The notes under the pieces were generated by a model. It ran no database searches, was not told where the DNA came from, and saw only the letters and a list, made by a program, of their open reading frames with translations. A stretch of 64,000 nt of DNA from Nitrospirota bacterium (GTDB lineage: Bacteria; Nitrospirota; UBA9217): the NCBI GenBank assembly GCA_963818475.1, contig CAWFSF010000006.1:384001-448000 (forward strand). The letters are read 5' to 3'. Made by a program: the position numbers and the translations under genes. Shown one piece after another: positions 122 through 63,474 of the stretch (position 1 is the first letter of the stretch; every line of letters starts with the position of its first letter).

Positions 122-847
122 ATGCATTTGCCGCAGAGGATATCATCGAGTATGCTGGAAAAAAACCGAACCTATGGGCTCCTCGTCTTCTCCGCCTTTC
201 TTGTGCTGCTCCTGACACTGGCGACGGTGACGCGGAACCGCGCCTTTCGCGACACCGTCAGTTTCTGGGCGGATGCCACGGAAAAATCGCCGGGAAAGCA
301 GCGGACGCACCATAACTATGGCTGTGCCCTGTCCGATGCCGGTTTGCATGACGCTGCTTTGCGTGAGTTCAGAACGACGCTGGCCATGAAGCCGGACGGG
401 AGCGTACTGTTAGGGTATCTGCTGATCGAGATGGGAATTTCCTATTACCACCTTGAACAGTACGACAATGCCATAAGCACCTGGCAGGAAGCACTGAGGC
501 ATGAACCGGACAACGCCGAAGTGCTCAATGACCTGGCCATGGCGTTCCTCAAAAAGAAGAGATTTGCCGATGCTCGCGCGTATGCGGAACGGGCGCTGAC
601 GATAGATCCATCGATGGCGGACACGTGGAATACACTGGGACAGATCCAGCTTGCCCAGGGTGATCCCGAGGGGGCGATCCGTTCTTTGCTGCTGGCCCTG
701 GAAAAAGAGCCCGACGTGGCATCACGATATTGGGACGTTATCGAGATATTTGAAAAAACAGGCCGCGATGCTTTGGCCCGTGAGTATGCAGACAGGGCGA
801 AAACGCTGGAGCAGGAGGCCTGGTCCAGGCAGCGGGCACTCAAGTGA
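122..847 (+). CDS. Membrane-anchored tetratricopeptide repeat protein (TMTC-like C-terminal module)
   Basis: One TM helix, then an RN..F.D...FW.D..EKSP.K.R motif and several TPRs. The ORF is open from 56, but that start lies inside the repeat, so ATG 122 or 152 is more likely. Confidence 0.8.
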   Translation: MHLPQRISSSMLEKNRTYGLLVFSAFLVLLLTLATVTRNRAFRDTVSFWADATEKSPGKQRTHHNYGCALSDAGLHDAALREFRTTLAMKPDGSVLLGYLLIEMGISYYHLEQYDNAISTWQEALRHEPDNAEVLNDLAMAFLKKKRFADARAYAERALTIDPSMADTWNTLGQIQLAQGDPEGAIRSLLLALEKEPDVASRYWDVIEIFEKTGRDALAREYADRAKTLEQEAWSRQRALK

Positions 848-952
848 AAAACTTTTTGGCCGCAGATTACGCAGATGGACGCAGATTTTAATAACATCAT
901 TCAGGGTTTTGTTTTAACAGGTTATTGAAAAAGGCGAAAAACCACTAGATTT

Positions 953-1022
953 GTCATTCTGAGCGTAGCGAAGAATCTCGGTTTTACAACAACTTCAGAT
1001 CCTTCACTTCGTTCAGGATGAC
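953..1022. repeat. REP-like inverted repeat pair
   Basis: gtcattctgagcgtagcgaagaatct (953-978) pairs with agatccttcacttcgttcaggatgac (997-1022). Confidence 0.75.
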
Positions 1023-1026
1023 CCTT

Positions 1027-1163
1027 TAACAGGTTGTTGAAAAAGTGTTTTGAGTGGTTCGACATGCTCACCACGAACGAATTAAAATCAATCATTTCAA
1101 TGTTCCCTCCGTTCGCCCTGAGCTTGTCGAAGGGTTAATAGAGGGTTTTTCAACAGCCTGCTA
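1027..1163. mobile_element. MITE-like element with 18-bp terminal inverted repeats enclosing a REP-like pair
   Basis: taacaggttgttgaaaaa (1027-1044) and tttttcaacagcctgcta (1146-1163) are 16/18 complementary. Internal ttcgacatgctcaccacgaacg pairs with cgttcgccctgagcttgtcgaa. A second left end, taacaggttattgaaaaa, is at 915-932. Confidence 0.65.
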
Positions 1164-5439: not shown

Positions 5440-5556
5440 TGGGCAAAAATGAGCAGGCTGTGCGCATTATCGCTCATTGCGATAGCCTTTACAGTCACTA
5501 CCATTTTAAATTATTATTGTTTTTCAATTAATTACTACTATGGCACGGGTATTGCT
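5440..5556 (+). promoter_or_regulatory. Sigma-54 promoter with upstream palindromic activator sites
   Basis: TGGCAC-GGGTA-TTGCT at 5541-5556 is a perfect -24/-12 consensus. TGCGCATTATCGCTCA is at 5461-5476, with a weaker site 21 bp upstream. IHF-like tttcaattaatta is at 5522-5534. Confidence 0.8.
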
Positions 5557-5810: not shown

Positions 5811-6479
5811 ATGAAAAAAATGATCGTTGTAACAGTAGCACTGGCTTTTGTGCTCTTGAGCGCCGGAGCGGCACTGGCCGCTCTCGCGGGCAGCAAGCAC
5901 GACATGAGGACCTACCTGACAGGTCAGACGGGTGGATACGACGAAGTCTGCGTCTATTGCCACACGCCGCACAGCGCATCAATGACAGCTCAGCTCTGGA
6001 ACCATACGGCTTCCTCAGTAGGTTCCTACCAGACCTATACAAACACCTGGGGAACCTTGCAATCCGTTCCAGGAACCCCCGGCAATGGGTCGCTGCTCTG
6101 CTTAAGCTGTCATGACGGCACCGTTGCTGTTGATAACCTGGTCAATCCGCCGAACAGCGGCTCCCAGGGGAGTAATGACGGCGGCGGCGAACTTAATGCT
6201 TCTAAATATATCACTTCCGGAAGAGCTTCAAATTTTAGCACCGATCTCAGGAACGACCACCCGATCGGCTTCGCGTATAACGCCTCCCTCGTAACTAACG
6301 ACGGCGGACTTGTTGATGCGAATACCGTTGGAAATAGCACCTATGTGCGTATTATCAATGGTATTGGCGGTACTGTAGAGTGTGCAACCTGCCACGATGC
6401 TCACAATACAACGGTTCCACCGTTCCTGCGGAGCTCCAACGCGGCATCAGCGCTCTGCACCCGTTGCCACACTAAGTAA
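5811..6479 (+). CDS. Tetraheme c-type cytochrome, OmcE-like (doubled CXXCH family)
   Basis: Signal peptide, then SKHD...CVYCHTPH...LWN...CLSCHDG...DLRNDHP...ECATCHDAH...PFLR...LCTRCHTK. This is the motif order I recall for Geobacter OmcE. Confidence 0.88.
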   Translation: MKKMIVVTVALAFVLLSAGAALAALAGSKHDMRTYLTGQTGGYDEVCVYCHTPHSASMTAQLWNHTASSVGSYQTYTNTWGTLQSVPGTPGNGSLLCLSCHDGTVAVDNLVNPPNSGSQGSNDGGGELNASKYITSGRASNFSTDLRNDHPIGFAYNASLVTNDGGLVDANTVGNSTYVRIINGIGGTVECATCHDAHNTTVPPFLRSSNAASALCTRCHTK

Positions 6480-6534: not shown

Positions 6535-6940
6535 GGATTATGGCAGGTCGTTTGGCGCGGCAAAAGGTACTAAAAAAGTTTTGACTTTACTGTGACGGAG
6601 TGATAATCTGCTACGCTGGGTTGTAATTGAGGCGTGTAAATGGAGTTATGAATCATCCTTAAACGTTATTGCCATTGCGATGTGGAGCAGCTTCCATAGC
6701 CCAAAGCAGGATCGGTCGGGGTAAACCAGGACACTACAGGATGCGTACGCAGCGCCCTCGTTTATCGGGGGTTGTAAGGCGGCTAATTGTAACAATTGTA
6801 CCGCGGCGCCTCGTAGAAAAAGAGTATTGGGTTATGATTTCATTTCACTCGTAGGAAGAAGTTCATACACGCCCAAGCTCCCTGTATTCCCCGTATCCAT
6901 CTCTGGTCAACTGCCGTTATCAGATTCAAGAGGAATAGAA

Positions 6941-8002
6941 ATGCCTATTCGTGCGATACTTATACTTCTGATGCTTCTCGCTGGATGCGCGACAAAAGCG
7001 CCGCAACAAGAGCTGCTCGCGTGGCCTTCGCTGCCGGCTCTGCCGCGGGTCGCCTATGTGGCGAGCTACCGGGGATCGATCGATTTTTTCAAGCCCAAGT
7101 TTTGGGATAGTATTTTGGGGAGCGACGAAGTAAGAAAAAAAGACCTCAACAAGCCCTTTGGCGTGTCTGTGTATGGCGACAGAATTTATGTTTCCGATAC
7201 AGGGTTCGGCTATGTCGCCGTGATTGACACAAAAGAACGGAAGGTGTCCTACCTCGGCGCCAGCGGGAGGGCTGTTTTGAAACAGCCCTTTGGGGTCGCA
7301 GCTGCAGCTGATGGGACGATCTATGTTGCCGACGGAAAGCAGAAAAGTATCTACGCATTTAACCAGAACGGCGAGCTCCTGTCGGCTTTTGGCGATACCG
7401 GTGAGTTCAGCAGGCCGGCAGGGATCGCTGTCAACAGCGGACTGGGAAGGCTCTATGTGTGTGATGTTGCGGCGAACGCGGTCTTTGCCTTCTCCCTTAA
7501 GGGGGAGCGACTCTTCGAGTTTAAAAAAGGGGAGGAATCCGGAGACGGGGTTTTCAATTCGCCGACCCACATTGCCATTGACCGGAGAAATGGAAATGTG
7601 CTTGTTGCTGATACAAATAATTTCAGGGTGCAGGTTTTTGACAAAGACGGTACCTACTTGAGGAAATTCGGGCAGCTGGGCGACGGTCCCGGAGATTTCA
7701 GCAGGCCCAAGGGCATCGCTGTCGACTCCGAAGGCCATGTTTATGTGGCAGATGCGGCTTTTAATAATTTCCAGATATTCGATGACATGGGCCGGCTGCT
7801 GCTGACCGTAGGGCAACTGGGCAACGGAGCTGGAAATTTTCTACTGCCTGGCGGCATGTATATTGACGGTCAAGACAGGATCTATGTCGCTGATACCCTT
7901 AACAGGAGGGTCGAGGTGTTTCAATACATGAGCGATTCCTGGCAGCTGGCGCATCCTGAGGAGTTCAAAAAATACCTGCTTCCCGATACTGTGGCAGAGT
8001 GA
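6941..8002 (+). CDS. NHL-repeat (6-bladed beta-propeller) lipoprotein
   Basis: RBS gagga before ATG 6941; lipobox LAGC; repeated F..P.GIAVD..G.IYVAD..N.R.QVFD units. Confidence 0.88.
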   Translation: MPIRAILILLMLLAGCATKAPQQELLAWPSLPALPRVAYVASYRGSIDFFKPKFWDSILGSDEVRKKDLNKPFGVSVYGDRIYVSDTGFGYVAVIDTKERKVSYLGASGRAVLKQPFGVAAAADGTIYVADGKQKSIYAFNQNGELLSAFGDTGEFSRPAGIAVNSGLGRLYVCDVAANAVFAFSLKGERLFEFKKGEESGDGVFNSPTHIAIDRRNGNVLVADTNNFRVQVFDKDGTYLRKFGQLGDGPGDFSRPKGIAVDSEGHVYVADAAFNNFQIFDDMGRLLLTVGQLGNGAGNFLLPGGMYIDGQDRIYVADTLNRRVEVFQYMSDSWQLAHPEEFKKYLLPDTVAE

Positions 8003-8053
8003 CAGGTTCTCGCCACCTGAAGAGGTTGAAACTCTTGTGCTGCATATCCGCTA

Positions 8054-8081
8054 GTAGAGGCGGGTTTAAAACCCGACCCTC
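8054..8081. repeat. GTAG-type REP-like palindrome
   Basis: gtagaggcgggtttaaaacccgaccct lies in the gap between the NHL and PPIase genes. Confidence 0.45.
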
Positions 8082-8124
8082 CCTTCTGTCCATTTTTTGC
8101 GCCTGGTGTCGGGACTGGGGTAGT

Positions 8125-9045
8125 ATGAATAAATTATTATTAGTACTTATCATGCTTTTTTATGCGTTCCCACTGCAGGCCGACGGCAATGTGGTTGCAA
8201 GGGTTAACGGTGCTGCAATTTACTCGTTGCAGCTTGATATTGCTGTGCGTCAGCTTATCACCACCTCTACATTTCATGGGAGTCTTTCTGATGAAAAACG
8301 CCATGAATTCCAGGAACAGGCCCTTCAGGATCTTATCATCCGCGAACTGAAATATCAGGATGCAGTGGCTCGAGGATTTAATCCTGATAAAAATCTGGTA
8401 AAAACAAAGATAGCGGAAATTAAGAACAAATTTAATTCTGGAAAGGAATATAGAAAAGCGCTGTCCGAAGCAGGGCTTTCGGAAGACGATATACGCTCAG
8501 ATGTGGAAAAGAACCTTGTTATCGAAGGCGCGATCAATAAAATCGTAGTGGACGCGGCACGCTGGAATGATGCCGAGCTCAAGGCGTACTACGATTCGAA
8601 TGCCGATAAATTTACGCAACCGGAAAGCGTAAAACTGAGGATCATATCGTGTGCGGCTGAAAAAAAAGCAGCTGAGGCGTTGACCTTGATACGTTCAAAC
8701 GAAGCTTTTGGTGCGGTCGCAGCCAAAATGTCCGAGGATAATTATCGGACAAGGGGGGGCGATATCGGATATATTCATCGGGACAGGATCTACCCGGAGC
8801 TGGAAAACGAAGCTTTCAGGATGAAGCCGGGAGAGGTGAGCGGTCTGATACGCGCTGAAGGAATGTGGTTCATCATCAAGGTCGAAGAGAAAATCCCCGA
8901 GCGCCGGATCGCATTCGAGGAGGCAAAGGATAAACTCAAAAAAGAGCTCGAGGCAAGACGTTCCACTGAGATGCTCGAGAAATGGAGCCAGGAACTCAGG
9001 GCAAAGGCAAAGATAGAAATTCTGCTTAACAACGAAAAAAAATAA
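8125..9045 (+). CDS. Periplasmic peptidyl-prolyl isomerase/chaperone (SurA-N + PpiC/parvulin)
   Basis: Signal peptide from ATG 8125; VVARVNG..I; F..VA.KMSED.....GGDIG; AF.MKPGEVS..I....WFIIKV. Confidence 0.88.
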   Translation: MNKLLLVLIMLFYAFPLQADGNVVARVNGAAIYSLQLDIAVRQLITTSTFHGSLSDEKRHEFQEQALQDLIIRELKYQDAVARGFNPDKNLVKTKIAEIKNKFNSGKEYRKALSEAGLSEDDIRSDVEKNLVIEGAINKIVVDAARWNDAELKAYYDSNADKFTQPESVKLRIISCAAEKKAAEALTLIRSNEAFGAVAAKMSEDNYRTRGGDIGYIHRDRIYPELENEAFRMKPGEVSGLIRAEGMWFIIKVEEKIPERRIAFEEAKDKLKKELEARRSTEMLEKWSQELRAKAKIEILLNNEKK

Positions 9046-9292: not shown

Positions 9293-11220
9293 GTGAAAGT
9301 TATGTGCTTGTATAAAATATTATATAAAATATTATATTTATCAATAATTTCCGTTCTTCTTCTTGGACCGGGACGCGCAGATGCTTATCGCGTTTCAGGC
9401 TTAGCAGCATTTACCTATACTGTTGATGAGTCTCGAACAGGAGATCGGAAAACTTCTTCACATTATTTTACCCAGGATTATAACGTCGGGTTCCAAAATC
9501 ATATCTGGGATCCGCGGTTTCTAAGATTTCACGCGGGAATCGGATATAACGTTATCACTGGTTCGACTGAAAACAAAAGCCTGACTTATGACCTTGGTAT
9601 GAACTTCTTCAGTGGCATGATGATATCCTGGAACTTGTTCGATAGAAAATCTACAAGCAAGGTGTCGACCAGAGGAAATGACTACGATCTAATGACGAGT
9701 TCCTATGGCGGATCCTTGGACCTTAATCTCAGCCGCATGGCAGGGCGGCGAAGGAATAATAACAACAACAACAACAACAACAACAATAACAACAACAATA
9801 ACTTTAATAATAACATAACAATAATAACAACAACAACAATAATAATAACAACAATAACAACGGAAGCCGGTTCCGTTTCCCTCTCCCTGATATTGAACTT
9901 TCCTTCGGACATGTTGAGTCTGAAGCACAGAATGCGCTGAATCCGATCCGTGAATCGCGTGACAACGCTGGCCTGTCTATGAAATACCGCTTTACTTCAC
10001 GGGGCGATCTGAACATAGGTCAGACCGTGGAAACGTATAAGAACTTCATTACCGGAGGAACCTATGATACGAAGTCCACGGACTTTTCATCAAAAATTCT
10101 TGTGTCCCCTGGTGCTGACCTGGTGGTGAGTGGCAACCGGCTTGACCGGACAATCACGGGCATTCCCGGGTTTGGTGCTGATAAAAGATTGCAGTCCAAG
10201 GTAGCCCTTAATTTTAAGGAGCGGGAAGGAATATCGTATGGCTACACGTATGACTTCAGCGATTCTCAGACGCCCAGCGATGAACTGACCCGCCACGATG
10301 CCGCGGCCACGGTGTCGTACCTGATCAATAGTGACCTGTCTTTGCGCGGAAACCTCAATTATAGCGTAGCGGACTATTTCATCAAAGCCACGGAAGAGAG
10401 ACAGAACCTGGAGACCGGAGGTGCTCAGACTGGGGTGGCCTACCGGAAAATCCATACGCCGGATTTTCTCGGGCCATTTGTAATGGACACTAATTATGGA
10501 TTCAATACGGGCTATTCGAAGGTCACTGGCCAGGTCAGTGAGGATACGGGGGGAGGCCTGTATTATGAAAACACCGCGGGTCTCTTATTCACGAGCAAGG
10601 GATGGACAAAGGATAGATTGTCCGCGGGTTACAATATCTCCAGCAAAAGAGACCGGTCGCCTCTTAGTAACAATGCCCGGCGGGAGAATTTTAGATTTGA
10701 TGCTTCCACATTCCGGATTCCTCAGACAACCGTGCAAGCCAATATCTCCTATAGTTCCATCGAAAATAGCAGTGCCGCCAACTATAGTGAGTTGATATAT
10801 GGATATCAAAAAAATCCGATTGCCGAACGCAGAGATCTTACCTACCAGGTGACCGCGCTTTACCTGGTCTCGCCTTCCCTGAACATTGATGTCGGAGCCT
10901 CGAAACAGCGTACTTCGGACGCTGCCTCACTTTCTACCTTGCAGCCTACTAATGCAGCGATGATCGAACAACTGGCATATATTGGCGCCCACTATGTAAA
11001 TGCTATTAGCCGCAGTCTGGTGTACCGGGCAGATGTCCGTGATGAATTCCGAAGCACATCCGGGGAAAGAATAGAAAGACGCAATGTCGAAATGAACCTC
11101 GATTACCGCATCAGGCAGGTTCTGGTAAATTTTAAATACCGCTGGAACGCGTCGATGCCTGACAACGGTCTTACTACCTACGTGCAGAGCTATTATGTGA
11201 AATTGTCGAGGCCGTTCTAA
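9293..11220 (+). CDS. Outer-membrane beta-barrel protein, split by a 1-nt deletion at about 9815 inside a poly-Asn tract
   Basis: Signal peptide, alternating Tyr/Phe-rich beta-strands and a C-terminal beta-signal YYVKLSRPF. ORFs 9293-9940 and 9979-11220 join if aac-at-aac at 9812-9819 is restored to aac-aat-aac. Confidence 0.75.
9755..9861 (+). repeat. (AAC/AAT)n trinucleotide tract encoding about 35 Asn
   Basis: 107-nt run of aac/aat triplets with one ttt codon and one missing base. Confidence 0.95.
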
Positions 11221-11568: not shown

Positions 11569-12327
11569 ATGATCCACGGAAAAAAACTCATTGTTGTCAT
11601 GCCTGCCTATAACGCGGAAAAAACGCTTCGGCAGACCTATGCGGAGCTGCCTCATGAGTATGTTGATGAGGTCATTCTGGTGGATGATGCCTCCGGGGAT
11701 AATACGACCACGGTTGCCCATGATCTTGGCATCACCACAATCGTGCATGCTGAAAACAGAGGATACGGTGCAAACCAGAAGACCTGCTATCGGGAGGCGC
11801 TGAAGCTGGGCGCTGACATCGTGGTGATGGTCCACCCCGATTATCAGTATTCACCTCGGCTGGTAACCGCCATGGCATCCATGATCACTTCGGGGCATTA
11901 TGATGTTGCACTGGGATCAAGGATCCTGTGCGGCGGGACCTGGCAGGGAGGAATGCCCCTGTACAAATATATAGCCAATCGTTTTCTCACGCTGGTCGAG
12001 AACGTGATGCTCGGCATCAAATTATCCGAGTTCCATACCGGCTACCGCGCCTTCAGCCGGAAAGTGCTCCTTGCTCTGCCCTTAGGGGAAAATTCCGATG
12101 ATTTTGTTTTTGATAACGAGATGCTTGCCCAGTCGGTATACCGGGGGTTCAGGATCGGCGAGATAAGCTGTCCCACGAAATATTTTGACGATGCTTCCTC
12201 GATCTCGTTCACGCGCAGCGTTCACTACGGATTCGGTGTCCTGGGGACGTCGGGAAAATTTGTGCTTCAGAAGCTCGGTCTCGCAAAATTTGCCCTGTTT
12301 AGCAGCACCGGGAAAAAACTGTGCTGA
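11569..12327 (+). CDS. GT2 glycosyltransferase, polyprenol-phosphate mannose synthase-like
   Basis: [34 protein letters not shown] and HTGYRAF motifs. Confidence 0.9.
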
Positions 12328-45847: not shown

Positions 45848-45904
45848 CGGTATCCGCGGACTGCGCAGAGGAAGACATTCACAGATGCATAAATGAGGTG
45901 GCTT

Positions 45905-50137: not shown

Positions 50138-50245
50138 GACTTATACTATATACAAATTATCAGGTTTCGTCCAATGATTTTTCCCACACGTTTTTTATTT
50201 GACAATAGCAGGCGATTCCTTTAATTTGTAGCATTGCTCTTCTCT

Positions 50246-52889: not shown

Positions 52890-53630
52890 ATGTTGCGCAC
52901 AAGAATGGTTTGGATAATCGCGGTTGCGATACTTCTTTTTTTCCTTGCTACAACGTTCTTCCTGGACCTCAAAGGGCGGAGCGCAAGGTCTTACGGTGAA
53001 CGAGTCCATGATGTTTCGGAAACCCAATTGCCGGTGACCATGATCGCCAGTTCGGGAGAATTGTATCGTCTTTATAAATCCCGCGGTGTGCAGGGAAGGC
53101 TTTTGGTACATATCGGAACGCACCTGCATTTCGTCGACGGCAATGATGACAAAGGACCTTTTTCGCCGCTGCCCCGTCCAGACGCTTTGGGCGTTCTCCA
53201 CGCATACGAACAACGGATAGACTATACTAATGTGTTCTGGGTGGCGATGCAGGCGAATATCGTTCGCGGAATTTATTACGTTTTGCCGGACCAGGTATAT
53301 CAGGAAATAAGAAAGGCGGCGCGCGAGGACGACTTTGATATTGCTTACATGGATACGGAACGTATTGTGGCCCATGAATGGGGTTTCCGCCGCGAAATTT
53401 CCAATTCAATCCCCGTTCTTCCCGAACCGGTGCTGTTGAACATTGACGCCTCGGTGTTCGAGTATCGGGAAGTGTCCGATATCCTTCGCATGGTTAAGCA
53501 GTCGCGCTTGAAAGCCGATCTTATTACGGCGAACCTGTCGGAGGACAGCCCGGACGTATCGCCGGCAAGCAGGGGGAAAATGAGGTTGTTCATATCGCTC
53601 TTGACCGGGGGGGGCAGTGGAAAACAATAA
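52890..53630 (+). CDS. Hypothetical exported protein (possibly UPF0489/arginase-like fold)
   Basis: N-terminal TM; GRLLVHIG.H, IVRGIYYVLP, VLLNIDAS and ADLIT motifs; paralog of 60121. Confidence 0.65.
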   Translation: MLRTRMVWIIAVAILLFFLATTFFLDLKGRSARSYGERVHDVSETQLPVTMIASSGELYRLYKSRGVQGRLLVHIGTHLHFVDGNDDKGPFSPLPRPDALGVLHAYEQRIDYTNVFWVAMQANIVRGIYYVLPDQVYQEIRKAAREDDFDIAYMDTERIVAHEWGFRREISNSIPVLPEPVLLNIDASVFEYREVSDILRMVKQSRLKADLITANLSEDSPDVSPASRGKMRLFISLLTGGGSGKQ

Positions 53631-54843
53631 AAAAGAGTTTCTTGCGCTGCTGCTGTTAATAACCCTGCTTGGCATATGTCTCCGCGTATATGGGGTCTTC
53701 GGGCAGCCTCTCCTGGAGGACGAAACTCTGATGGCCTCCACGGCGCGCAATTACATGGAGCGGGGACATTTCGTGCCTTCCATGCCTCACCACCCCAATT
53801 TGCGCAATATCCTTGTTTTTTTGTCCATGAATACGTTCGGTGAGAACGGCCTCGGGGTACGGTTCTTCAGCCTTCTCTTCGGTATCCTGAGCGTCCCGCT
53901 TCTGGGGCTCCTGCTGTACAGGCTGACCTCGAATGTAACCGCTTCCAGCCTGGCCGCGTTTTTCCTTGCAGTGGATCCCGTCCATATCCTCTACAGCAGG
54001 CACGCCATCCAAGAGGTCCATACGGCATTTTTTTTCCTCGCAGGCACGCTTCTCTTTGTCCATGCGGCGACCCGGAACGATCGTTGGTGGCTTCTACCGG
54101 CAAGCGGGGTATTTTTCGGGTTCGGACTCGCGTCCAAGGCCCATGCCGCATTCCCGCTCCTCGTCTGCCTGGTCTCTGTGTTTTTATCAGCGAAGGAGTT
54201 GAGAAAGAAAGAGTTTCGTATCCTGGCGGTAGTATCTCTTACGGTGCTGCCCCTCACGGTGTTCATGCTGACCGATGCAGCGTGGTTCAGCCGGGGGTAT
54301 GATCTTGCCGACTGGCTGTTCATGAGAAAAACGCTCATTGGCCCCATGACGGCGAAATTTACCCCGCCGACCACGGAAATCAATGTGGACACGTTGGCCT
54401 GGCAGTGGTTCCTTGTTCCCTTTCTCGGGTATCATGAATTTTCCTATGGCAGCGGAAAACCGGTTCTCTTTGTCGCCATGGGGAACCCTCTTGTCTGGAT
54501 GCTCGTGCTGCCCGCCGCTTTTTATATCCTGTACAGGTGGAGGAGCATACAAGGCGCATTGTTTATGCAGGCCCTCTTCTGGCTTTCCTATCTGCCGCTC
54601 GTAGTTGCTCCCCGAAGAATATTTCTACTTTCGTCCATAGCAGTCACGCCCTTCGCCTATGGTCTCGTAGGTCTCGCGGTTTCCCATGCGGCAACGCGTT
54701 GGGGGAAAAAAATAGTATATGTCTATCTCGGCGCTGTTCTGGCAATAAGCCTGCTGCTGTACCCTTTGACCTTGGGGCAGGGATGGAATTATCAGTACCT
54801 CCGTCCGATGGTAGAACGATTTAATCCCCATCAAAACCGTTAA
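53617..54843 (+). CDS. Pmt-like (GT39/GT-C) phospholipid carrier-dependent glycosyltransferase
   Basis: DE motif, HHP, G.R..S.LFG, DP.H..YSR, GLASK, AWQW and GNPLVW motifs. Confidence 0.85.
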   Translation: MENNKKEFLALLLLITLLGICLRVYGVFGQPLLEDETLMASTARNYMERGHFVPSMPHHPNLRNILVFLSMNTFGENGLGVRFFSLLFGILSVPLLGLLLYRLTSNVTASSLAAFFLAVDPVHILYSRHAIQEVHTAFFFLAGTLLFVHAATRNDRWWLLPASGVFFGFGLASKAHAAFPLLVCLVSVFLSAKELRKKEFRILAVVSLTVLPLTVFMLTDAAWFSRGYDLADWLFMRKTLIGPMTAKFTPPTTEINVDTLAWQWFLVPFLGYHEFSYGSGKPVLFVAMGNPLVWMLVLPAAFYILYRWRSIQGALFMQALFWLSYLPLVVAPRRIFLLSSIAVTPFAYGLVGLAVSHAATRWGKKIVYVYLGAVLAISLLLYPLTLGQGWNYQYLRPMVERFNPHQNR

Positions 54844-54961: not shown

Positions 54962-55001
54962 AGCATACTCGGGCAGAATGCCTCACTTTGAAAGGAGTAT
55001 T

Positions 55002-55838
55002 ATGTCTCCCGTAGAAACCGTCTTATTCTGGATATGTCTTCTTGCCTATGCATTGGCAACAGGCGGATATATCTATTCGTTTGTCTTCAAAAACGAAAAG
55101 GTCCTTCCCAAGCTGATGCTCCTGGTTACGGTTGGTTTTGTTCTCCATACCGCTACTATCGCTGCGCGATATTACGCCCAAGGGCATCTTCCCTGGAGCG
55201 GAGATTATGAAAACGGGCTCATGGGGGGCTGGTTCGTCATGGTATTGACGGTGTATGTCGTACGGCAGCAGAAACAACTCCAGGCACTGGCGGCGGTGAC
55301 TGTGCCTTTTACCCTGTTAATGATGGGCTTCGGCGTAATGCGGAACCCGACACTCGGGCCCATGGCGGCTTCTCTCAAGTCCTTCTGGCTGTTGATCCAC
55401 GTATATTTCGCCTGGCTGGCTTTCGGAGCGTTCGCGCTCGCCATGGCCGCCGGCATTCTTTATTTGCTCAAGGAAAAAGACGCTGCGCAGCCGGCACAAA
55501 ACCCGGTTTATGGTCGTTTTCCCTCTATCACCAGACTCGATGAATTGATGTTTCGCTACATAATCTTCGGGTTCATCACCGATGCTATCATGATCGCCGC
55601 GGGCGCCATCTGGGCCAAGGATTTGTGGGGAAGCTACTGGAGCTGGGACCCGGTCGAGACGTGGTCCCTGGTGTCATGGCTCATGTACGGCATCATCATC
55701 CATCTCCGCATGACCTTCGGGTGGCGGGGCCGAAGGCTTTCCTGGCTGACGATTTTCGCTATCGTCGGCATGATCATCACCTTTTTCGGCGTCAACTTCG
55801 TCGTCGAAAGCAGCTTCCACCTTTTTAACGTCAGATGA
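55002..55838 (+). CDS. ccsA: Cytochrome c biogenesis protein CcsA/ResC (system II)
   Basis: RBS aaggag; L.S.WL.IHV; WWD domain GAIWA...WGSYWSWDPVETW; conserved His residues. Confidence 0.93.
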   Translation: MSPVETVLFWICLLAYALATGGYIYSFVFKNEKVLPKLMLLVTVGFVLHTATIAARYYAQGHLPWSGDYENGLMGGWFVMVLTVYVVRQQKQLQALAAVTVPFTLLMMGFGVMRNPTLGPMAASLKSFWLLIHVYFAWLAFGAFALAMAAGILYLLKEKDAAQPAQNPVYGRFPSITRLDELMFRYIIFGFITDAIMIAAGAIWAKDLWGSYWSWDPVETWSLVSWLMYGIIIHLRMTFGWRGRRLSWLTIFAIVGMIITFFGVNFVVESSFHLFNVR

Positions 55839-57237
55839 TCCGCAAAGTCCTTTCCATAGCGTCATCACTGCGTTTTACGCTGATCTTGATCGTGGCGCTG
55901 TCGATCATATTCCTTCTCGGCCTATGGATACCCCAGAAGGGGTTGTTCACCCGTGAGGTTTACGTTCAATGGAAGACCAATTCTCCCGGGTCTCGTAACA
56001 GCGCTCGAAACCCTGGGGTTTACGGATATCTATACTGCCCCGATAACCATGGCCCTCTGGGTTCTTTTTTTCCTCAATCTCGTGTTTGGTCATGTTCAGA
56101 CGGCTGGATGTCGTCAAGGCTAAAATACGCCTCTCCGAGGACAAGCAGGAAGACCCGTCGACGAGTTCGCGATACCGGTACCGCAAGAGCATTCCTCTGT
56201 CAACGGAACTAGAACGCGATGCAGTCGCGCGAGCGCTTAAGCAGGAGGGGTATCGGGTTTTCGGACAGCCTGAGCGTTTTTACGCCGTAAAAAATCGTTT
56301 TTCGCCGGTTGCCACGATACTGTTCCATTTAAGTTTTCTTCTCATTCTTGCCGGAGGCATAGTTGGCCTCTATACACGTTTTTCCGCTTATCTCGATTTG
56401 GCTGCCGGAGAAGAGATCGACGGTTCCCTTGACCGGTTCACGAAACCTCTGACAATCCCTAAGATCGGCGCAATCCCGTCGGGAAGCTTCAAAGTCACGG
56501 ATATCCGTCCCGAGATGATTGGTGACACTCCGGCCGGTCTGCAAGTCGACATCCTCGATCCCGCCGGGAAGATCACGACTGCGGATATTAACAAACCATA
56601 CAAACCGGGAAAAGTGTCTTTCGTAGTCAAGGACCTCGGGGTGGCTCCGCTGGTAATTCTGCAGGACCGTTCGGGGAAGGAAGTGGACGGCGCCTATGTG
56701 AAGCTCAATGTGCTGCGCGGTAAGCAGGACCACTTCAAATTGCAGGGCGTCACCTTTACGGTCGATTTTTTCCCGGATTATGCTGTTCAGGACGGCATTG
56801 AAATATCACGTTCTGAAGAAGTTCGGAATCCTGCCTTCAGGTTTGCTTTGCAAGGGAGGGATTCCGTGCCCCTGCAGAGCACGATCCGTCCCGGTGAAGA
56901 GGCAGCGCTCGGCGCTTACCGGCTGAAGGTGCCCTCGGTACTGTACTGGGTCCGCTTCTACGTTGTGAAGGAGGAAGGGCTGGAATTGGTCTACGCAGGA
57001 TTCTTTCTCTCCGTTTTCGCGCTGATCTGGCGTTTTGGCTATTATCAGCGGGAACTCGTGGGCCGCAGGATAAACCAGGAAGGGAAAGAAGTTCTGCTCC
57101 TGGCCGGGCGGGCGGAGTTTTACCCCGCGCTTTACGAGGATGAATTCAATGAGCTGACGGAGAGGATAATGAAATTTTCCAACCGGGTGAACTCAGATAT
57201 GAAGCGGCCAAGTGCGGACAGCCGGGAGCCCTTGTGA
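55835..57237 (+). CDS. resB: Cytochrome c biogenesis protein ResB/CcsB, interrupted by two +1 indels (about 55988 and 56085)
   Basis: ASSL.F..ILI...G.WIPQ, then GFTDIYTAP...FFLNL in an intermediate frame, then LFHLSFLLILAGG and INKP. Coupled to ccsA by ATGA. Confidence 0.82.
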
Positions 57238-58100
57238 AAAGAAAAACTGTTAAAAGCGTAAGCAACTCAACTCAACTCAACTCAACTCAAGGAAGTCATC
57301 CCCTTCAAATCGCCCTCGTGTTCTTGCTGGTAATTGTCCTCTGTGCCGCTGCTTTTAAAAGAAATACGATTTGGCACGATAAAGTTCGTCTCTGGAACGA
57401 CGTGGTCGAGAAAAGCCCGTATATGGCAAGGGGATATATCAATCGCGCCAACGCCTTTAGAGAAGCCCGGCAGTATAGAGAGGCAATCGAGGATTGCGCT
57501 CGTGGGCTTGAACTTCATGAACTAAATCCCCGCCTCAATGAAGCGCACTTTACCTGCGGAATTATCTATTACGAGACCGGGGACTACGGAAACGCTATAC
57601 GGGAATACAGCCGGGAAATAGCTATAAATCCCGGTTTCGCAAGGGCTTATTTCAATCGGGGTAATATCTATTATCTGCAGGGAAATTATGATAGTGCGAT
57701 CCAGGATTACAGCGCGGAAATAGCGATAAATCCGGAGGATGCAAAATCTTACTTCAATCGAGCCAATGCCTTCAATACTATCGGCCTTCACGACAAGGCA
57801 ATCTCGGACTACACCAGAGAAATAACGGTCAATCCCCTGAATTCCGTGGCGTATTGCAATCGTGCGATAGCCTTGAGCGCAAAGGGGCATTATGATGCGG
57901 CGCTTGAAGATTTCAACAAGGCCATAGCTCTGAATCAGGGGAATGCCCAGCTCTTCTTCAGCCGGGGAAATGAATATCTCAGGCGGGCGCAATATGAACT
58001 GGCGATCGAGGATTATAACAAGGCAATCGAAATCAAGCCTGATTACAGGGATGCTGACATCAATAGGGGTATCGCATTGAGGAACATAAGAGGACGCTGA
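57234..58100 (+). CDS. Membrane-anchored TPR protein
   Basis: TM helix, RN.IW.D...LW.D...KSP...R motif and about 6 TPRs. The GTG start overlaps the resB stop. Confidence 0.85.
   Translation: MKRKTVKSVSNSTQLNSTQGSHPLQIALVFLLVIVLCAAAFKRNTIWHDKVRLWNDVVEKSPYMARGYINRANAFREARQYREAIEDCARGLELHELNPRLNEAHFTCGIIYYETGDYGNAIREYSREIAINPGFARAYFNRGNIYYLQGNYDSAIQDYSAEIAINPEDAKSYFNRANAFNTIGLHDKAISDYTREITVNPLNSVAYCNRAIALSAKGHYDAALEDFNKAIALNQGNAQLFFSRGNEYLRRAQYELAIEDYNKAIEIKPDYRDADINRGIALRNIRGR
57263..57290 (+). repeat. (CAACT)5.6 pentanucleotide simple sequence repeat
   Basis: caactcaactcaactcaactcaactcaa, about 30 nt after the start codon. Confidence 0.9.
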
Positions 58101-58492
58101 GAAAGCAAAAGCTGACGCTCCAAAAGCCTTATAAACTACTCATGGGAAAATAAATGGCAACAGTGACGACCTATCGATTACAGACCACACCGTAACTTAA
58201 AGCTGACCACTGGAAAGCGCGATTCTCCGATTTAGCACACGGCGCGCGATACCGAACAAATGCACTGATTACGGGATTGCTTCCCCGGGTAGCGGCTAAT
58301 TTAAAGAAAGAAGTGATATGAAATTTAGTCAGCAGTTGCCTTATTATCGAAACGTGTTTGTGCACCCTGCCCTCTCCAGTAAATATAGTAGAAAATGTTA
58401 TTGCATCAAGTATGAACAATGAGTATGATGGCCCTGAGGAGAAAAAATACTTCTTCCAGGGCCACAATTTTTATGTTACCCGATATCCGTAA

Positions 58493-59332
58493 ATGTACCG
58501 TAAATTTATGAGCAAATTCTTAAACGTAACTCGCCGCTGGCACATCACGACTGCATTGGCTATTTCTGTGGTTATATTGCTGTCTTACACTGCATACAAG
58601 AGAAATTCCGCCTGGCAAAATGATCTAACGTTAATGACTGATATTACAAACAAATCTCCCCAGAAATCACGCGGATACATCTATCTTGGAAATTATCATT
58701 ATTTTACAGGTTCGTTTGATAATGCAATAATAAATTTTCAGACAGCTTTGCGACTCACCGGCAAGCAGCCGGACTTATTGCCCGGAATATATGTTAGTTT
58801 AGGCAATGCCTATGTCTCTACGGGGCAAATAGAGAAGGCAATCGAATATTATGTGAAAGCCGTAGAAATCAATCCCGATTATGATTCAGCATATGCCAAC
58901 CTCGGCAATGCGTATAGTTCTCAAGGGGCGCTGGATAAAGCAATAGATTATTATCAAATTGCACTGAGGCTTAATCCGAATTCCGCCAATGCTTATAATA
59001 ATATTGCTAATGCCTACTTCAAGAAAAACGAGCTAGATAAAGCCATTGAATATTATCGGCTGTCCTTAAGACTAAATCCCGATTCAGCTTATTTATACAA
59101 TAATATCGCCAGTGCTTATTTTGCAAAAGGACTGCCTAAAGAAGCAATTGAGAATTTTGATAAAGCCATAGAGTTAAAAAATGATATGGCGCTTTTTTAT
59201 GTTAACCGAGGCGACGCGCATCTTAAACTAGGGCAGAGAAGAGAAGCAATGTCAGACTATGGAGAGGCATGCGCATTAAGTGACGAACCGGGATGTAGAG
59301 AACTTCGGAAATTAGGATTTGCTCACGATTAA
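58493..59332 (+). CDS. Membrane-anchored TPR protein (AT-rich)
   Basis: TM helix, RNSAW.N...KSPQK.R motif and 6 TPRs. Confidence 0.85.
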   Translation: MYRKFMSKFLNVTRRWHITTALAISVVILLSYTAYKRNSAWQNDLTLMTDITNKSPQKSRGYIYLGNYHYFTGSFDNAIINFQTALRLTGKQPDLLPGIYVSLGNAYVSTGQIEKAIEYYVKAVEINPDYDSAYANLGNAYSSQGALDKAIDYYQIALRLNPNSANAYNNIANAYFKKNELDKAIEYYRLSLRLNPDSAYLYNNIASAYFAKGLPKEAIENFDKAIELKNDMALFYVNRGDAHLKLGQRREAMSDYGEACALSDEPGCRELRKLGFAHD

Positions 59333-59875: not shown

Positions 59876-60120
59876 ATAATCCAGGCAAGACTGCACGTTC
59901 CATTCCCATGATTTGATTGAAAAATACTGCCAATGCTGTCCCAGCAAGACAGCCCTTGGCATGCCCCGCGTTACCTGATTGGTCTCCTTAGTCTCCAGTT
60001 TGAAAATAACACTGGAGCGTCGGCTTAATCTCGGCTGGATTGCGGCAGGCGCTTTTGATCGTCGGAGGAAACGCAGTGCGCCCATCTTATTACTCCCCCA
60101 TAACAATTCAAAAGAAAAGG

Positions 60121-60723
60121 ATGATCATTTTCAATATCCTTATCGTTGTTGTCTCTACTTCAATTTTAGTGTTTTTCTCTCTCTATGGAACGTCCCGGAG
60201 GGTGTTTTTACAAACGGGACTCATTCAGGTGTTGAAGGAACCGAAGGAATGCATATACGCATGGCGCAACGCCGGTGTTTCCGGGCGGGTCCTTTTCCAC
60301 ATTGACAGGCGACTGCGCGCCGAGTATGACCCCGATGATCCGATTCTGGACAATGACAACTATATGTATACCGCGAGGAGCGAGGCTGTTGTCAGAAAAA
60401 TTTACCATATCGTTCCCGAAGAATCTTGGACGGAAGTGGCGTCCAATCTCTCGAAACTCCCAAACGTGGCAGCTGCCGGCCCCGGTTTTCGATATTCGCT
60501 GGAGGGGACCCCGGTGTTCATTATGCGTGCAAAAGACATTGTCCCAATGAAGGAAAAGGTCCTCATCCATATCAACGGTGATTCCTGGGGAGGTGAGGGT
60601 ATTGAACAGATAATCGGGCTGCTTACTGATAACGTCCTCAGCGCAGACTTCATCACAATAACCGGGAAGATGGAAAATAGTCATGTGCAGTCGTTCAAAT
60701 CGTCGATGAATGAGTATCTTTAA
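60121..60723 (+). CDS. Hypothetical exported protein (paralog of 52890)
   Basis: TM helix; GRVLFHID, VVRKIYHIVP, VLIHINGD and ADFIT motifs. Confidence 0.65.
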   Translation: MIIFNILIVVVSTSILVFFSLYGTSRRVFLQTGLIQVLKEPKECIYAWRNAGVSGRVLFHIDRRLRAEYDPDDPILDNDNYMYTARSEAVVRKIYHIVPEESWTEVASNLSKLPNVAAAGPGFRYSLEGTPVFIMRAKDIVPMKEKVLIHINGDSWGGEGIEQIIGLLTDNVLSADFITITGKMENSHVQSFKSSMNEYL

Positions 60724-61958
60724 TAGACAAGTTGTGATCGTGGCGCTCCTGACCGTCCTCGCGCTGGGATTACGGTTGTGGGGAATTTCCGACATGGAGG
60801 CCCACACCGGCGACGAGGCGGGGCAGGTGTCTTCAGCAAAGCATTTCATCCGGACCGGCCATACTGATTCTACTTTTTGGCACCACCCTCCTTTTGGTCT
60901 CATTCTCATCGCTGCCAGCATCGAGGTTTTCGGAGACAACCCCGCGGGCTGGCGCCTGCGAAACGCCGTGTTGGGCGGCATGACCCCGCTGTTGTTGTTT
61001 CTGATCGCCGCGGAATTATTTGCCTCGCAACGCGTTGCGTTCATGGCAGGCTTGCTTCTGGCGCTCGACCCCCTCCATATTTTTCTGTCTCGTTCGACCA
61101 TGGACGAGATTCCTGCTGTTTTTTTCTTTCTCCTGGCCCTCCTTGTCGACGTGAAATACCTGAAGGGAAAGATCGAGACGCCGCTTGCGTCAGGGCTCTT
61201 TCTCGGTCTTTCTCTTGCTTCGAAGCAATACTACGCTCTCGCAATATTACCTCTTTTTATTTTCAATCTGGTACTCCCGGCGAAGGGTGAGAAGGCGGGC
61301 TGGTATAAGACCATGCACGTCACGCTGGTGTTTCTCCTGCTGCCGCTGGTCGTTTTTACGGCATGCTACTTCCCGTGGTTTGCCGGAGGGCACGGGCTTC
61401 GCGATTTTTATCGCTTCCAACTTGATGCATATTATGATCTGCAAAGCATGACGTATAACTGGTTTGCGCTGGGAGAACTATTGCGGGAAACAGGTGCGCC
61501 ATGGGAATGGTTCGTGCGGCCGAAATATACCATGCTCTTCGGGGCCGGCTGGGGCCAATGGGGCTGCTATCTCTGCCTGACTAATAATCCGGTCATATGG
61601 CTCTTGACGCTGCCGGCATTGTTCTTCATGACCCTTCGATACAGAAAGGAAAAAGACCGCTGGCTTTTGATGACAGTCGTTCTTTTCCTGGCTGTTTATG
61701 TGCCGTTACTGTTGGCAAAAAGGCCGATTTTTCTGTACTCTGCGACCGCAGTCCTTCCCTTTGCCTTCCTGGCGGTCGCATATCTGGTGACTTCGCTGGC
61801 GCAAAAGGCCAGGATGCATGAATTAGCATATTCTATTTGCCACCGCGTGCGTTATTGCGATAGGTTTATACCATTATCCGTTGGCGACGGCGAAGCCCGT
61901 GCCGGCCGTTCTTTACACCCCCATTCTGACCGAAGAGGTGGCGACGCGGAATCTTTAG
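60710..61958 (+). CDS. Pmt-like (GT39) glycosyltransferase with a +1 indel near 61837 affecting the last TM helix
   Basis: GDE, HHPPFG...FGDNPAGWR, DPLH..LSR, PWEW and NNPVIW motifs. The shifted frame reads IATACVIAIGLYHYPLAT...RNL* like the paralog's tail; the uncorrected ORF ends at 61993. Confidence 0.82.
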
Positions 61959-62169
61959 CGCGTTGCCGTCTCAAACCCTTCCCCACCACGTAAAGATATT
62001 ATTCTCTCCGCGGCTTTACCAAATGCAAGTATGCCGGAGTTTATGGCGGTAACTATGATCTTATTTCCTGCTCTCTCAAATAAATAAAGCAGGAAATAAG
62101 TTGCATCGGGTCCGAAGAATAGATATGATGGCCCTCAGAAGAAAAAATACTTCTTTCAGCGCCACAATT

Positions 62170-63474
62170 TTAGCGGGAGTTTTCCATAATAAAGTCGAGA
62201 TCGCTCTTGTCCATCAGCAGCTGCGGTTTCACGGGGATATGTGTCTTTTCGTCGACGCCCGACGCCATGCCGATGGCCAGGATGATAGCTTCCGACTGGC
62301 CCGGACGCAGAATTCTCGGCCCCCATTCCAGAAAAATGACCCTGTTGCTGATGCTCGCCAGCGGGACTTTTTCAGATTCCTGCGCGAACCGTCCTATGCT
62401 GTTGGAAAAGTAGACGGTATCGGGCCTGACCTCACCCAGCCATTCGATGAAATTTGCCATACCCGAGAACGTTTTCGATTTCCCTGACGGTATCATCTTA
62501 TTCCCATAGTCATACTGCCCGGCGTACGAGTATTTCGCGGCGTCTACCATTCCTTCATAGTAGAAGAGCCTGTCTTTTACCCACCCCACATTTCCTTCAG
62601 AGGAGCCGAAATTACCGACCCACGGTTCGTCTCCGTAAATATAGAAATAGGGCACGTCATAGCTGTTCCTGTTTTTTAAAACGATCATCAGAATAAAATA
62701 GGCATCATCGGTTCTGAAAACGGCGTACCGGTCCATATGCAGGGGAACCCCCTGGAATTCGACCTTGTGGCTGCTTTTCAGGATCAGCTTTGATTTGCTT
62801 TTATTCAGGATCTTGCTGCCAAGAAATTCCCAATGGGAAGGAGTCAGCATGTGGTCCGGATCAAATCCGATGCCAAGCGCTTCGTTTGCATTGCACCAGA
62901 GATGCTGCCATTCCTTCCCGTTAAAAAAAGCCATCCCGGTTTCGTTTTTTGTGACGTTGGGATCTTCCAGCTTTGCTCCCGGCAATCCGCCTCCGACAAA
63001 AATTCCTTTAGGAGCGACGCCGTTGCCGCTGTCCTTGAACCGGCTGAAACAGGTGATGAGTCTTTTATTGTCTGGAAAATGAGACTCGACATATCCTCTT
63101 CCGGTTCGTTCGCTCCATCGGTAATGGATTTGGGACTCTTCAGTCGCATTGGTATCAACGCCCATCAAGTGCAAAAGAGGGATCAACCCAGGAATGCTTT
63201 TGCGCTTGATTAAGAAATCGAAAACTGGCTGGAAATCCACTCGGAAAATAATTTTATGCTCGTCTCCCAAAAAATCCTCATTCTGAAGATCGAAGACCGC
63301 GCCGTGGCTGCATCTCAGGAGATATATTCCCTCATAATCTCCTGAAAAGTCGAAGTGAGTTATGGAGATGAAGACCGTGAGCGGCAGTATGAGGATTGCA
63401 AGAAAGAGTATAGGGAGGCGGTTACTTGGAACAAGGAAGGAAAGTCTTCTGAGTTGATTTTTAACAGTATTCAT
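62170..63474 (-). CDS. Hypothetical membrane-anchored protein of unknown function
   Basis: 434-aa ORF with a single N-terminal TM and an aromatic-rich, beta-like soluble domain (GGGLP, ETGMA, WCNANE, YGDEPWVG). Confidence 0.75.
   Translation of the reverse strand: MNTVKNQLRRLSFLVPSNRLPILFLAILILPLTVFISITHFDFSGDYEGIYLLRCSHGAVFDLQNEDFLGDEHKIIFRVDFQPVFDFLIKRKSIPGLIPLLHLMGVDTNATEESQIHYRWSERTGRGYVESHFPDNKRLITCFSRFKDSGNGVAPKGIFVGGGLPGAKLEDPNVTKNETGMAFFNGKEWQHLWCNANEALGIGFDPDHMLTPSHWEFLGSKILNKSKSKLILKSSHKVEFQGVPLHMDRYAVFRTDDAYFILMIVLKNRNSYDVPYFYIYGDEPWVGNFGSSEGNVGWVKDRLFYYEGMVDAAKYSYAGQYDYGNKMIPSGKSKTFSGMANFIEWLGEVRPDTVYFSNSIGRFAQESEKVPLASISNRVIFLEWGPRILRPGQSEAIILAIGMASGVDEKTHIPVKPQLLMDKSDLDFIMENSR

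Follow-up and report, generated by a model that had tools for sequence, protein, structure and literature searches.

OmcE-type cytochrome modules and candidate glycosylation genes in a 64-kb stretch of a probable Nitrospirota genome

Can one stretch of a bacterial genome encode extracellular cytochrome filaments of the OmcE type together with the enzymes that would glycosylate them? The question is raised by 64,000 nucleotides (nt) of contig CAWFSF010000006.1 (positions 384,001 to 448,000, forward strand; the whole stretch is called the window), for which a sequence-only reading had proposed one island, an integrated factory of glycosylated cytochrome nanowires, possibly in a host other than Geobacter. 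The window holds 136 open reading frames (ORFs) of at least 100 amino acids (aa); 43 translations were screened with Pfam and 41 with NCBIfam, heme motifs were counted by script, and all gene classes named in that reading were located. They do not form one island: we found two OmcE modules, split by ~14 kb of unrelated, housekeeping-type genes. Judged from their sequences, the nanowire modules are likely to be real. We also lean towards the whole reading, in which OmcE filament modules are accompanied by glycosylation of the exported cytochromes through glycosyltransferases of family 2 (GT2) and of the GT-C type, an argument made largely by analogy.

The first module (OmcE1, 5.5-12.3 kb) comprises five genes. 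Among the matches listed for species-representative genomes, its closest counterpart is locus L001, from a metagenome-assembled genome (MAG) labelled Nitrospirota bacterium.

5811..6479, plus strand: OmcE1, a 222-aa tetraheme protein with a Sec signal peptide, candidate OmcE-family nanowire subunit (PDB match, motif count)
6827..8002, plus strand: NHL six-bladed beta-propeller lipoprotein (Pfam NHL, E=1e-32)
7999..9045, plus strand: SurA-N/PPIC-type periplasmic peptidyl-prolyl isomerase (PPIase; Pfam Rotamase_2, E=7e-21; SurA_N_3, E=7e-13)
9293..11220, plus strand: large outer-membrane beta-barrel gene in two frames (tblastn with the intact 646-aa L001 orthologue)
11569..12327, plus strand: GT2, polyprenyl-phosphate sugar synthase-like (DPM1/AglJ/PpgS-like), last gene of the OmcE1 operon (Pfam Glycos_transf_2, E=1e-21)

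OmcE1 aligns end to end with the subunits of two solved OmcE filaments, the Desulfuromonas soudanensis bundle (9yuq_N, E=2.3e-34) and the Geobacter sulfurreducens filament (7tfs_A, E=7.8e-28), and OmcE2 of the second module matches the same structures over its full length (7tfs_A, E=3.7e-22; 9yuq_N, E=2.8e-20). The OmcE-like tetrahemes of the sequence-only reading are confirmed as two proteins with four CXXCH motifs each. These four motifs and four further His (H30, H54, H150, and H198) are invariant in 21 of 21 aligned family members, and OmcE1 and OmcE2 retain all eight heme-ligating His. A ninth His in OmcE1, considered as the mark of an "anchor" subunit, was rejected, as 67 of 120 homologues have nine His and 85 of 120 carry LWNH. 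The two proteins are 38% identical; in a quick tree with approximate likelihood ratio support (SH-aLRT), OmcE1 is sister to the L001 protein (support 100) and OmcE2 sits elsewhere on a long branch, and the two therefore appear to be old paralogues. The OmcE1 5' leader contains a perfect hairpin (5676-5690, GCTGCC-TGT-GGCAGC) that is kept in L001 (~9880-9900) and has no Rfam match; Rfam gave no match over the whole window at gathering thresholds and only sub-threshold noise in this leader, which indicates no known riboswitch.

The NHL lipoprotein probably starts near 6941, followed by a LAGC lipobox. A complex prediction pairing it with mature OmcE1 (residues 26-222) scored 0.00 against a mark of 0.32 and is uninformative either way. 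The barrel noticed in the sequence-only reading corresponds to 9293-11220, and the AlphaFold2 (AF2) model of the L001 orthologue is an all-beta barrel, in which a signal helix is followed by ~26-28 long strands (pLDDT 74.5, pTM 0.68). A PDB fold search with this model returned large outer-membrane barrels only, the best being MtrB (6r2q_B, TM-score 0.43). The sole PDB match of the GT2 is the dolichyl-phosphate-mannose (Dol-P-Man) synthase 5mlz (E=2.6e-8), and its NCBIfam matches to AglJ, PpgS, and Dol-P-hexose transferase all fall under their cut-offs. This DPM-like enzyme, already recognised from the sequence alone, belongs to the OmcE1 operon and is retained in L001.

The gene order of L001 is collinear with the window (OmcE-NHL-PPIase-barrel-GT2), followed by a GGDEF gene that is not in the window, an unknown gene, and an aspartate aminotransferase. 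Identities between the two loci are 66% for OmcE, 79% for NHL, 69% for PPIase, 89% for GT2, which is the most conserved gene of the module, 75% for the unknown gene, and 95% for the aminotransferase; the barrel aligns by tblastn in two frames (58% and 55% identity). At its locus, L001 has only this five-gene module, surrounded by housekeeping genes, with HtrA, YebC, RuvCAB, QueH, and SpoIID upstream. From this collinearity and identity we infer that the window organism is a close relative of the L001 MAG, and the host is very probably not Geobacter, in line with the earlier suggestion.

The second module (OmcE2, 26.4-38.4 kb) differs in composition, and there is no barrel gene within its operon.

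26482..27261, plus strand: OmcE2, a 259-aa tetraheme OmcE-family paralogue with exactly eight His (PDB match, motif count)
27237..30056, plus strand: 939-aa NHL propeller protein with BACON and FG-GAP domains, overlapping the OmcE2 stop and the start of the giant (Pfam)
30053..38422, plus strand: giant cytochrome of 2789 aa with 64 heme motifs (motif count, Pfam, and NCBIfam TIGR01904 in 14 stretches)

The giant had been put at ~64 hemes, and the script counted 64 motifs (48 CXXCH, one CX3CH, and 15 CX4CH), with ~15 repeated CX4CH-CXXCH-CXXCH triads. Its gene contains DNA repeats at 33287-36302 that are at least 300 nt long, up to 99% identical, and spaced by 1383 and 1056 nt. These repeats are recent internal duplications, and their copy number, hence the heme count, could be mis-assembled. 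They came from a separate repeat search; Tandem Repeats Finder detected no tandem repeats with a period up to 500 in the giant. An opposite-strand gene lies 3' of module 2, followed by the 40-63 kb region.

OmcE-like proteins are common, with 1873 homologues at E<=1e-8; in species-representative genomes, at least 632 of the 646 pattern matches listed encode an OmcE relative. We surveyed 77 other OmcE-like loci with 10 kb on either side, many of them shorter than 20 kb and one with a Desulfuromonadales label. An NHL homologue is present in 74 of the 77, the barrel family in 53 (iterative profile; nearly always on the strand of the OmcE-like gene), and a PPIase homologue in 12, and more than one OmcE-like gene occurs in 47 of 75 loci. 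The largest neighbouring cytochrome in these loci has 20 CXXCH, compared with the 64 motifs of the giant. The trio of OmcE-like protein, NHL protein, and barrel was found in MAGs with 18 phylum-level labels, subject to the usual binning caution, including Calditrichota, Bacteroidota, Acidobacteriota, Planctomycetota, and Verrucomicrobiota. These labels are scattered on the quick tree (64 changes against a minimum of 17), which suggests transfer or old paralogy. The spread looks new, as it is wider than the five phyla in print for OmcE clusters; clusters in Nitrospirota are also mentioned in print (PMC13712944).

For nanowire competence, the same source asks for nearby genes of a beta-propeller lipoprotein and of a large outer-membrane barrel, and it states that OmcE-like homologues need not all be nanowires (PMC13712944). 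A barrel gene is present at OmcE1 (9293-11220, in two frames here), and NHL proteins directly follow both OmcE genes, the one at 6827-8002 with the LAGC lipobox. By end-to-end homology and ligand pattern, the tetrahemes are members of the OmcE family.

Both OmcE genes are preceded by candidate promoters of the same type.

5541..5556, plus strand: sigma-54-type -24/-12 promoter TGGCAC-N5-TTGCT, exact consensus, ~255 nt upstream of OmcE1
26402..26417, plus strand: sigma-54-type promoter TGGTAT-N5-TTGCA, consensus match, upstream of OmcE2
46226..46241, plus strand: sigma-54-like site TGGCAA-N5-TTGCA, one mismatch, upstream of the fusion gene at 46504

Matching sigma-54 promoters had been noticed in the sequence-only reading, and the consensus is exact before both OmcE genes, with the third site, before 46504, deviating at one position. 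For the a-priori pattern TGGYAYN5TTGCW, 0.19 matches would be expected in the window and two were found, a number reached in 2 of 100 shuffled sequences; both lie upstream of OmcE-like genes and on the correct strand. L001 retains the OmcE1 site and an AT-rich block upstream of it. The 77 loci contain 18 exact matches, counting both strands, and 8 of these fall within the ~400 nt before an OmcE-like gene, a zone that accounts for 1.4% of the nucleotides scanned (binomial p=5e-11). Having a sigma-54 promoter upstream thus appears to be a trait of the family of OmcE-like genes, and the enrichment of such promoters across phyla looks new. Allowing one mismatch, TGGCACN5TTGCW was not enriched by itself (6 matches, 2.47 expected), and a pattern built from the three window sites was discarded as circular. 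No enhancer-binding protein is encoded in the window.

Three genes beyond module 2 pair glycosyltransferase and cytochrome sequences.

46504..48915, plus strand: 803-aa fusion of a TMTC/PMT-like GT-C membrane domain, TPR, and a C-terminal octaheme NapC/NirT-like domain (Pfam, CXXCH count, model)
50234..51067, plus strand: membrane-anchored cytochrome of 277 aa, octaheme and NapC/NirT-like, the unfused counterpart of the C-terminal domain above (66% identity)
51078..52733, plus strand: 551-aa GT-C/TPR protein, the unfused counterpart (59% identical to fusion residues 1-550)

The cytochrome domain of the fusion has eight CXXCH, and its homology begins ~8 residues past the end of the TPR homology, which leaves no room for a separate signal anchor. 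The same 803-aa ORF occurs on a second, independently assembled contig (802 of 803 residues identical), which shows the fusion to be genuine and no product of faulty assembly. In the unfused pair, the GT-C/TPR gene starts 11 nt after the octaheme gene, whose product matches NrfH (2j7a_C, E=1.4e-4). The two octahemes were absent from the cytochromes listed in the sequence-only reading, of which the tetrahemes and the giant were borne out. Likewise, of the four GT-C enzymes claimed there, two pass the PMT or PMT_2 cut-offs (below), and the other two, at 46504 and 51078, have a clear TPR domain and sub-threshold Pfam GT-C matches only (PIG-V 0.0019, GT87 0.0017); the latter are linked to the GT-C type by hhalign of their profile to the PMT_2 gene of the window (96.2% probability over 117 columns). 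Their alignment consensus conserves a GFVWDD acidic motif, which we take to be catalytic, and the fusion model has a pLDDT >90 over most of residues 1-550, that is, the membrane and TPR parts. PDB sequence searches with the GT-C/TPR and PMT_2 proteins gave TPR-only matches or none. A fish TMTC is among the GT-C/TPR homologues (P0119), with BLAST covering 15% of the query.

Among the best 120 of 312 GT-C/TPR homologues, two carry a cytochrome domain or at least two CXXCH: P0001 is the near-identical twin of the fusion (802/803), and P0060 matches the cytochrome part only. An exhaustive search with the cytochrome domain gave 554 matches, with a GT-C domain in none of the 150 listed and TPR or PMT in none of 17 by Pfam; clustering at 50% identity may hide fusions beneath GT-C representatives. 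A literature search for the GT-C/cytochrome combination turned up only PMC13712944. The fusion with its split paralogue, not seen elsewhere among the homologues listed, looks new. It is a long shot that the two represent a new class of cytochrome-coupled periplasmic protein glycosyltransferases, with a membrane-bound NapC/NirT-type multiheme module joined to a TMTC-like enzyme. Docking between cytochromes would then direct the glycosylation of nanowire subunits and of the giant, or the quinone pool would gate it through its redox state.

These genes lie amid further maturation and glycan genes, with one more ResB-like gene upstream of module 2.

25030-26220: ResB-like gene, weak (Pfam E=0.039)
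40653..41852, plus strand: ResB-like membrane protein, weak (Pfam ResB E=7e-6, 25.6 bits, cut-off 24.6)
42712..43920, plus strand: SGNH/AlgX-like membrane-anchored esterase or acyltransferase, copy 1 (Pfam)
43862..46063, plus strand: SxtJ-like small protein, O-carbamoyltransferase (44159-45847), and DUF5989 small protein (Pfam)
48968..50137, minus strand: SGNH/AlgX-like protein, copy 2 (Pfam; 44% identical to copy 1)
52890..54843, plus strand: anchored 246-aa protein and overlapping PMT/PMT_2 GT-C gene (53617-54843; Pfam PMT, E=1e-16)
54978..57237, plus strand: System II cytochrome c biogenesis, CcsA (54978-55838) and ResB (55835-57237, two frames) (NCBIfam, Pfam)
57234..59332, plus strand: two TPR proteins, the second matching TPR_CcmH_CycH (E=1.5e-10) and, under cut-off, NrfG (E=1.3e-11)
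60040..61993, plus strand: anchored 227-aa protein and overlapping PMT_2 GT-C gene (60710-61993; Pfam PMT_2, E=5e-16)

The GT-C genes at 53617-54843 and 60710-61993 are well above their cut-offs (PMT 61.7 bits, cut-off 22.7; PMT_2 59.8 bits, cut-off 26.1). They belong to a duplicated two-gene unit, in which the anchored proteins are 21% identical (E=1e-7) and the GT-C enzymes 30%. The set of ccsA with three ResB-like genes described earlier is present, at graded strength: CcsA passes the equivalog cut-off of TIGR03144 (189.2 bits, cut-off 187.6), its ResB partner scores 57.2 bits in Pfam (cut-off 24.6), and the two remaining ResB-like matches are those at E=7e-6 and E=0.039. The NHL, PPIase, TPR, SGNH (two, AlgX-like), and carbamoyltransferase proteins of the same account were all recovered with Pfam. 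The carbamoyltransferase (Carbam_trans_N, E=2e-92; Carbam_trans_C, E=4e-71) misses the NodU equivalog cut-off (171.6 bits, cut-off 1000) and belongs to the broader NodU/CmcH family only; it is accompanied by SxtJ (E=1.6e-6) and DUF5989 (E=1e-23). The names of this trio stem from a toxin operon and here mark just a carbamoylation unit; a literature search for DUF5989 found no paper with the term. No GT4 was found among the Pfam-scanned translations of the window. The glycosylation region is flanked on both sides by opposite-strand genes, a fused MFS/spermidine-synthase-like membrane protein (38852-40477, minus strand) and a 434-aa membrane protein without family (62170-63474, minus strand). Atlas searches with 62170-63474 and 52890-53630 gave unnamed clusters only.

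In the reading we lean towards, sigma-54 would drive two modules for extracellular cytochrome filaments of the OmcE type. Apo-subunits would be exported by Sec and would receive heme from the system II CcsA/ResB encoded at 55-57 kb, which may be specialised for the 16 CX3-4CH sites of the giant; the SurA/PrsA-like PPIase and the lipoprotein would handle the subunits in the periplasm, the barrel would serve as passage or anchor, and polymerisation would proceed through His-heme ligation between subunits, as known from the solved OmcE structures. By analogy with Geobacter, the GT2 would load a sugar onto polyprenyl phosphate, and the GT-C enzymes that face the periplasm, of which two are TMTC-like with TPR and two PMT_2-like, would move it to Ser/Thr of OmcE1, OmcE2, and the Ser/Thr-rich giant, after which the glycan would perhaps be acylated or carbamoylated. 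The step on which this depends, that the cytochromes are the glycosylation substrates, is quite possible, if short of probable. In its favour, one GT-C/TPR enzyme is fused to an octaheme cytochrome, and these enzymes are therefore physically tied to cytochromes; the window has this pairing both as a fusion and as adjacent genes, and cytochrome-maturation genes are interleaved with GT-C genes on the same strand. G. sulfurreducens OmcE is described as extensively glycosylated (PMC9473688), and after the omcE cluster of Geobacter and Geomonas come 15-70 genes, with GT2, GT4, GT39, and TPR among them and resB/ccsB in the shared flank (PMC13712944). The concept of an OmcE cluster with glycosylation genes is thus already in print for these genera. 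In the window, GT2, PMT-type (GT39-like), TPR, SGNH, and carbamoyltransferase genes are present but do not directly follow either OmcE module.

Several observations weigh against glycosylated wires. The sequence-only reading had named conserved co-occurrence of glycosylation genes with OmcE-like genes as a check, and GT-C, SGNH, and carbamoyltransferase homologues turned up within 10 kb in 0-2 of the 77 loci: the GT-C/TPR membrane-domain profile found homologues in two, and iterated searches found the GT2 in one and PMT1, PMT2, SGNH, and carbamoyltransferase in none. The glycosylation link is therefore not a conserved family trait. L001 has no GT-C gene within 10 kb of its OmcE module, and in the window the GT-C genes lie at least 8 kb from module 2 and at least 34 kb from module 1, with an opposite-strand gene between module 2 and the GT-C region. 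ccsA has a strong sigma-70-like promoter of its own (54933-54961), with a hairpin before the gene, the genes for the barrel and for ResB are each spread over two frames in the window, and a fold search with the fusion model gave TPR matches only, which swamped the GT-C fold and left it unconfirmed. SGNH/AlgX-like enzymes and NodU/CmcH-type carbamoyltransferases are typical of polysaccharide or glycan modification. Finally, D. soudanensis OmcE filaments are described as unglycosylated, which makes glycosylation optional (PMC13712944).

The last points are also those expected if the OmcE modules are real and the GT-C, SGNH, and carbamoyltransferase genes at 40-63 kb form a general envelope or exopolysaccharide glycan-modification cluster, with the cytochromes not its substrate. 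The AlgX-like SGNH proteins and NodU/CmcH-type carbamoyltransferases act on glycans, as known for their families, the SxtJ-carbamoyltransferase-DUF5989 cassette has no cytochrome link, the homologues are rare at OmcE loci, and an unglycosylated OmcE filament exists in D. soudanensis (PMC13712944). A separate glycan cluster leaves out of account the covalent fusion of a GT-C/TPR protein to an octaheme and its paralogue 11 nt after another, the CcsA/ResB and CcmH/NrfG-like TPR genes interleaved on the same strand, the GT2 inside the OmcE1 operon, and the Geobacter precedent; we regard it as doubtful, and as far from negligible. The maturation genes might themselves have another purpose. CcsA/ResB, the ResB-like paralogues, and the flanking TPR proteins could be a dedicated heme lyase for the CX4CH and CX3CH sites of the giant, which would explain maturation genes here with or without glycosylation and is compatible with the reading we lean towards. 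Wolinella has dedicated CcsBA isoenzymes, which such a lyase would resemble. The giant with its 15 CX4CH and one CX3CH, a CcsA over its equivalog cut-off beside up to three ResB-like genes, and TPR proteins matching CcmH/CycH and NrfG all fit this proposal. Specificity is not readable from sequence, ccsA/resB would be a general system if they were the only such pair of the genome, and in Desulfuromonadia resB/ccsB lie in the conserved flank of nearly all genomes, omcE cluster or not (PMC13712944). A dedicated lyase is accordingly a fair possibility that we would not presume.

An alternative that touches the modules themselves is that the tetrahemes are short periplasmic or surface carriers in an Mtr-like porin-cytochrome conduit built on the barrel, without micrometre filaments. 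The barrel model has its best TM-score to MtrB, OmcE-like tetrahemes are so widespread (1873 proteins) that the caution against counting all of them as nanowires applies (PMC13712944), and polymerisation cannot be read from sequence. Against this, each tetraheme matches two filament-forming OmcE proteins along its whole length and has all heme ligands, including the inter-subunit His pattern, barrel and propeller occur together at OmcE1, and a TM-score of 0.43 is a weak match. We consider such a conduit improbable.

Between and around the modules lie genes of other kinds.

12.5-26.2 kb: intervening genes without evident link to cytochromes or glycans (aminotransferase, LysM protein, histidine kinase, rhodanese, Ogg glycosylase, FtsX/ABC transporter, FtrD-like protein; Pfam, NCBIfam)

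At the end of this interval (20403-26220), two FtsX permeases, an ABC ATPase, an FtrD-like membrane protein, and the weak ResB-like gene stand directly 5' of the OmcE2 promoter. At the other edge of the window, 1535-5275 encodes a 1246-aa secreted protein with Sortilin/BNR, CARDB, and BACON domains, which is not found at the same position in L001; BACON-type domains, putative glycan-binding modules, are common to both large secreted proteins (1535-5275 and 27237-30056).

Each of three genes of the window, encoding the barrel, the DNA glycosylase Ogg, and ResB, is spread over two frames. The barrel frames (9293-9940 and 9979-11220) break within an (AAC/AAT)n poly-Asn tract at ~9756-9862; the L001 orthologue has only ~28 residues at this poly-Asn loop, and the same segment is the low-confidence stretch 157-189 of its model. 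Ogg (19233-19890) has two overlapping frames, with Pfam halves 2-85 and 84-173, and the ResB frames (55835-57237) overlap at 56047-56212 around a T7 run. The pattern suggests assembly indels and not decay, with homopolymer-type assembly errors of the contig in Ogg and ResB. The poly-Asn tract could be either an assembly indel or slippage-prone in vivo, switching the barrel on and off.

Compared with known systems, the window is most like G. sulfurreducens OmcE (7TFS) and the Geobacter/Geomonas cluster, with which it shares full-length tetraheme homology, a propeller lipoprotein, a large barrel, and further multihemes, as well as nearby GT2, GT39-type (PMT), TPR, and resB/ccsB genes (PMC13712944). 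It differs in its probably Nitrospirota host, in the separation of its two OmcE modules by unrelated genes, and in that no GT4 was found. It also differs in the TMTC-like GT-C/TPR proteins, one of them octaheme-fused, the SGNH and carbamoyltransferase genes, the in-module PPIase, and the 64-heme partner. The D. soudanensis WTL bundle (9YUQ) is the best PDB match of OmcE1, and in its minimal set (subunit, propeller, and barrel) it is similar to module 1; its cluster is described as free of glycosylation genes and its filament as free of glycan density, whereas module 1 ends in a GT2 (PMC13712944). The two PMT/PMT_2 genes, the two GT-C proteins with C-terminal TPR, and the GT2 match recall PMT/TMTC O-mannosyltransferases with Dol-P/polyprenyl-P-mannose synthase (5MLZ), from which the window enzymes differ in being bacterial, one with a C-terminal octaheme domain. 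MtrCAB (MtrB, 6R2Q chain B) likewise has a large outer-membrane barrel beside multiheme cytochromes and gives the best TM-score of the barrel model, but there is no sequence similarity, the TM-score of 0.43 is weak, and no MtrA or MtrC homologues were identified in the window.

The secretion, assembly, and modification of cytochrome nanowires are unanswered questions according to PMC13712944. The central idea tested here has already been published, which limits the surprise; the window adds a different glycosyltransferase set, the fusion, the 64-heme partner, and the sigma-54 evidence. It represents a second lineage whose OmcE modules have lipid-linked glycosylation genes in their vicinity, and its compact five-gene module (subunit, lipoprotein, PPIase, barrel, and GT2), kept in a relative, offers a minimal set for testing. 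The natural fusion links a GT-C enzyme to a multiheme cytochrome, and the sigma-54 signal, which recurs in several phyla before genes of the OmcE-like family, suggests a shared regulatory input. If the cytochrome-coupled glycosyltransferase reading is true, glycosylated OmcE wires under sigma-54 control would be a regulated trait well outside Desulfuromonadia.

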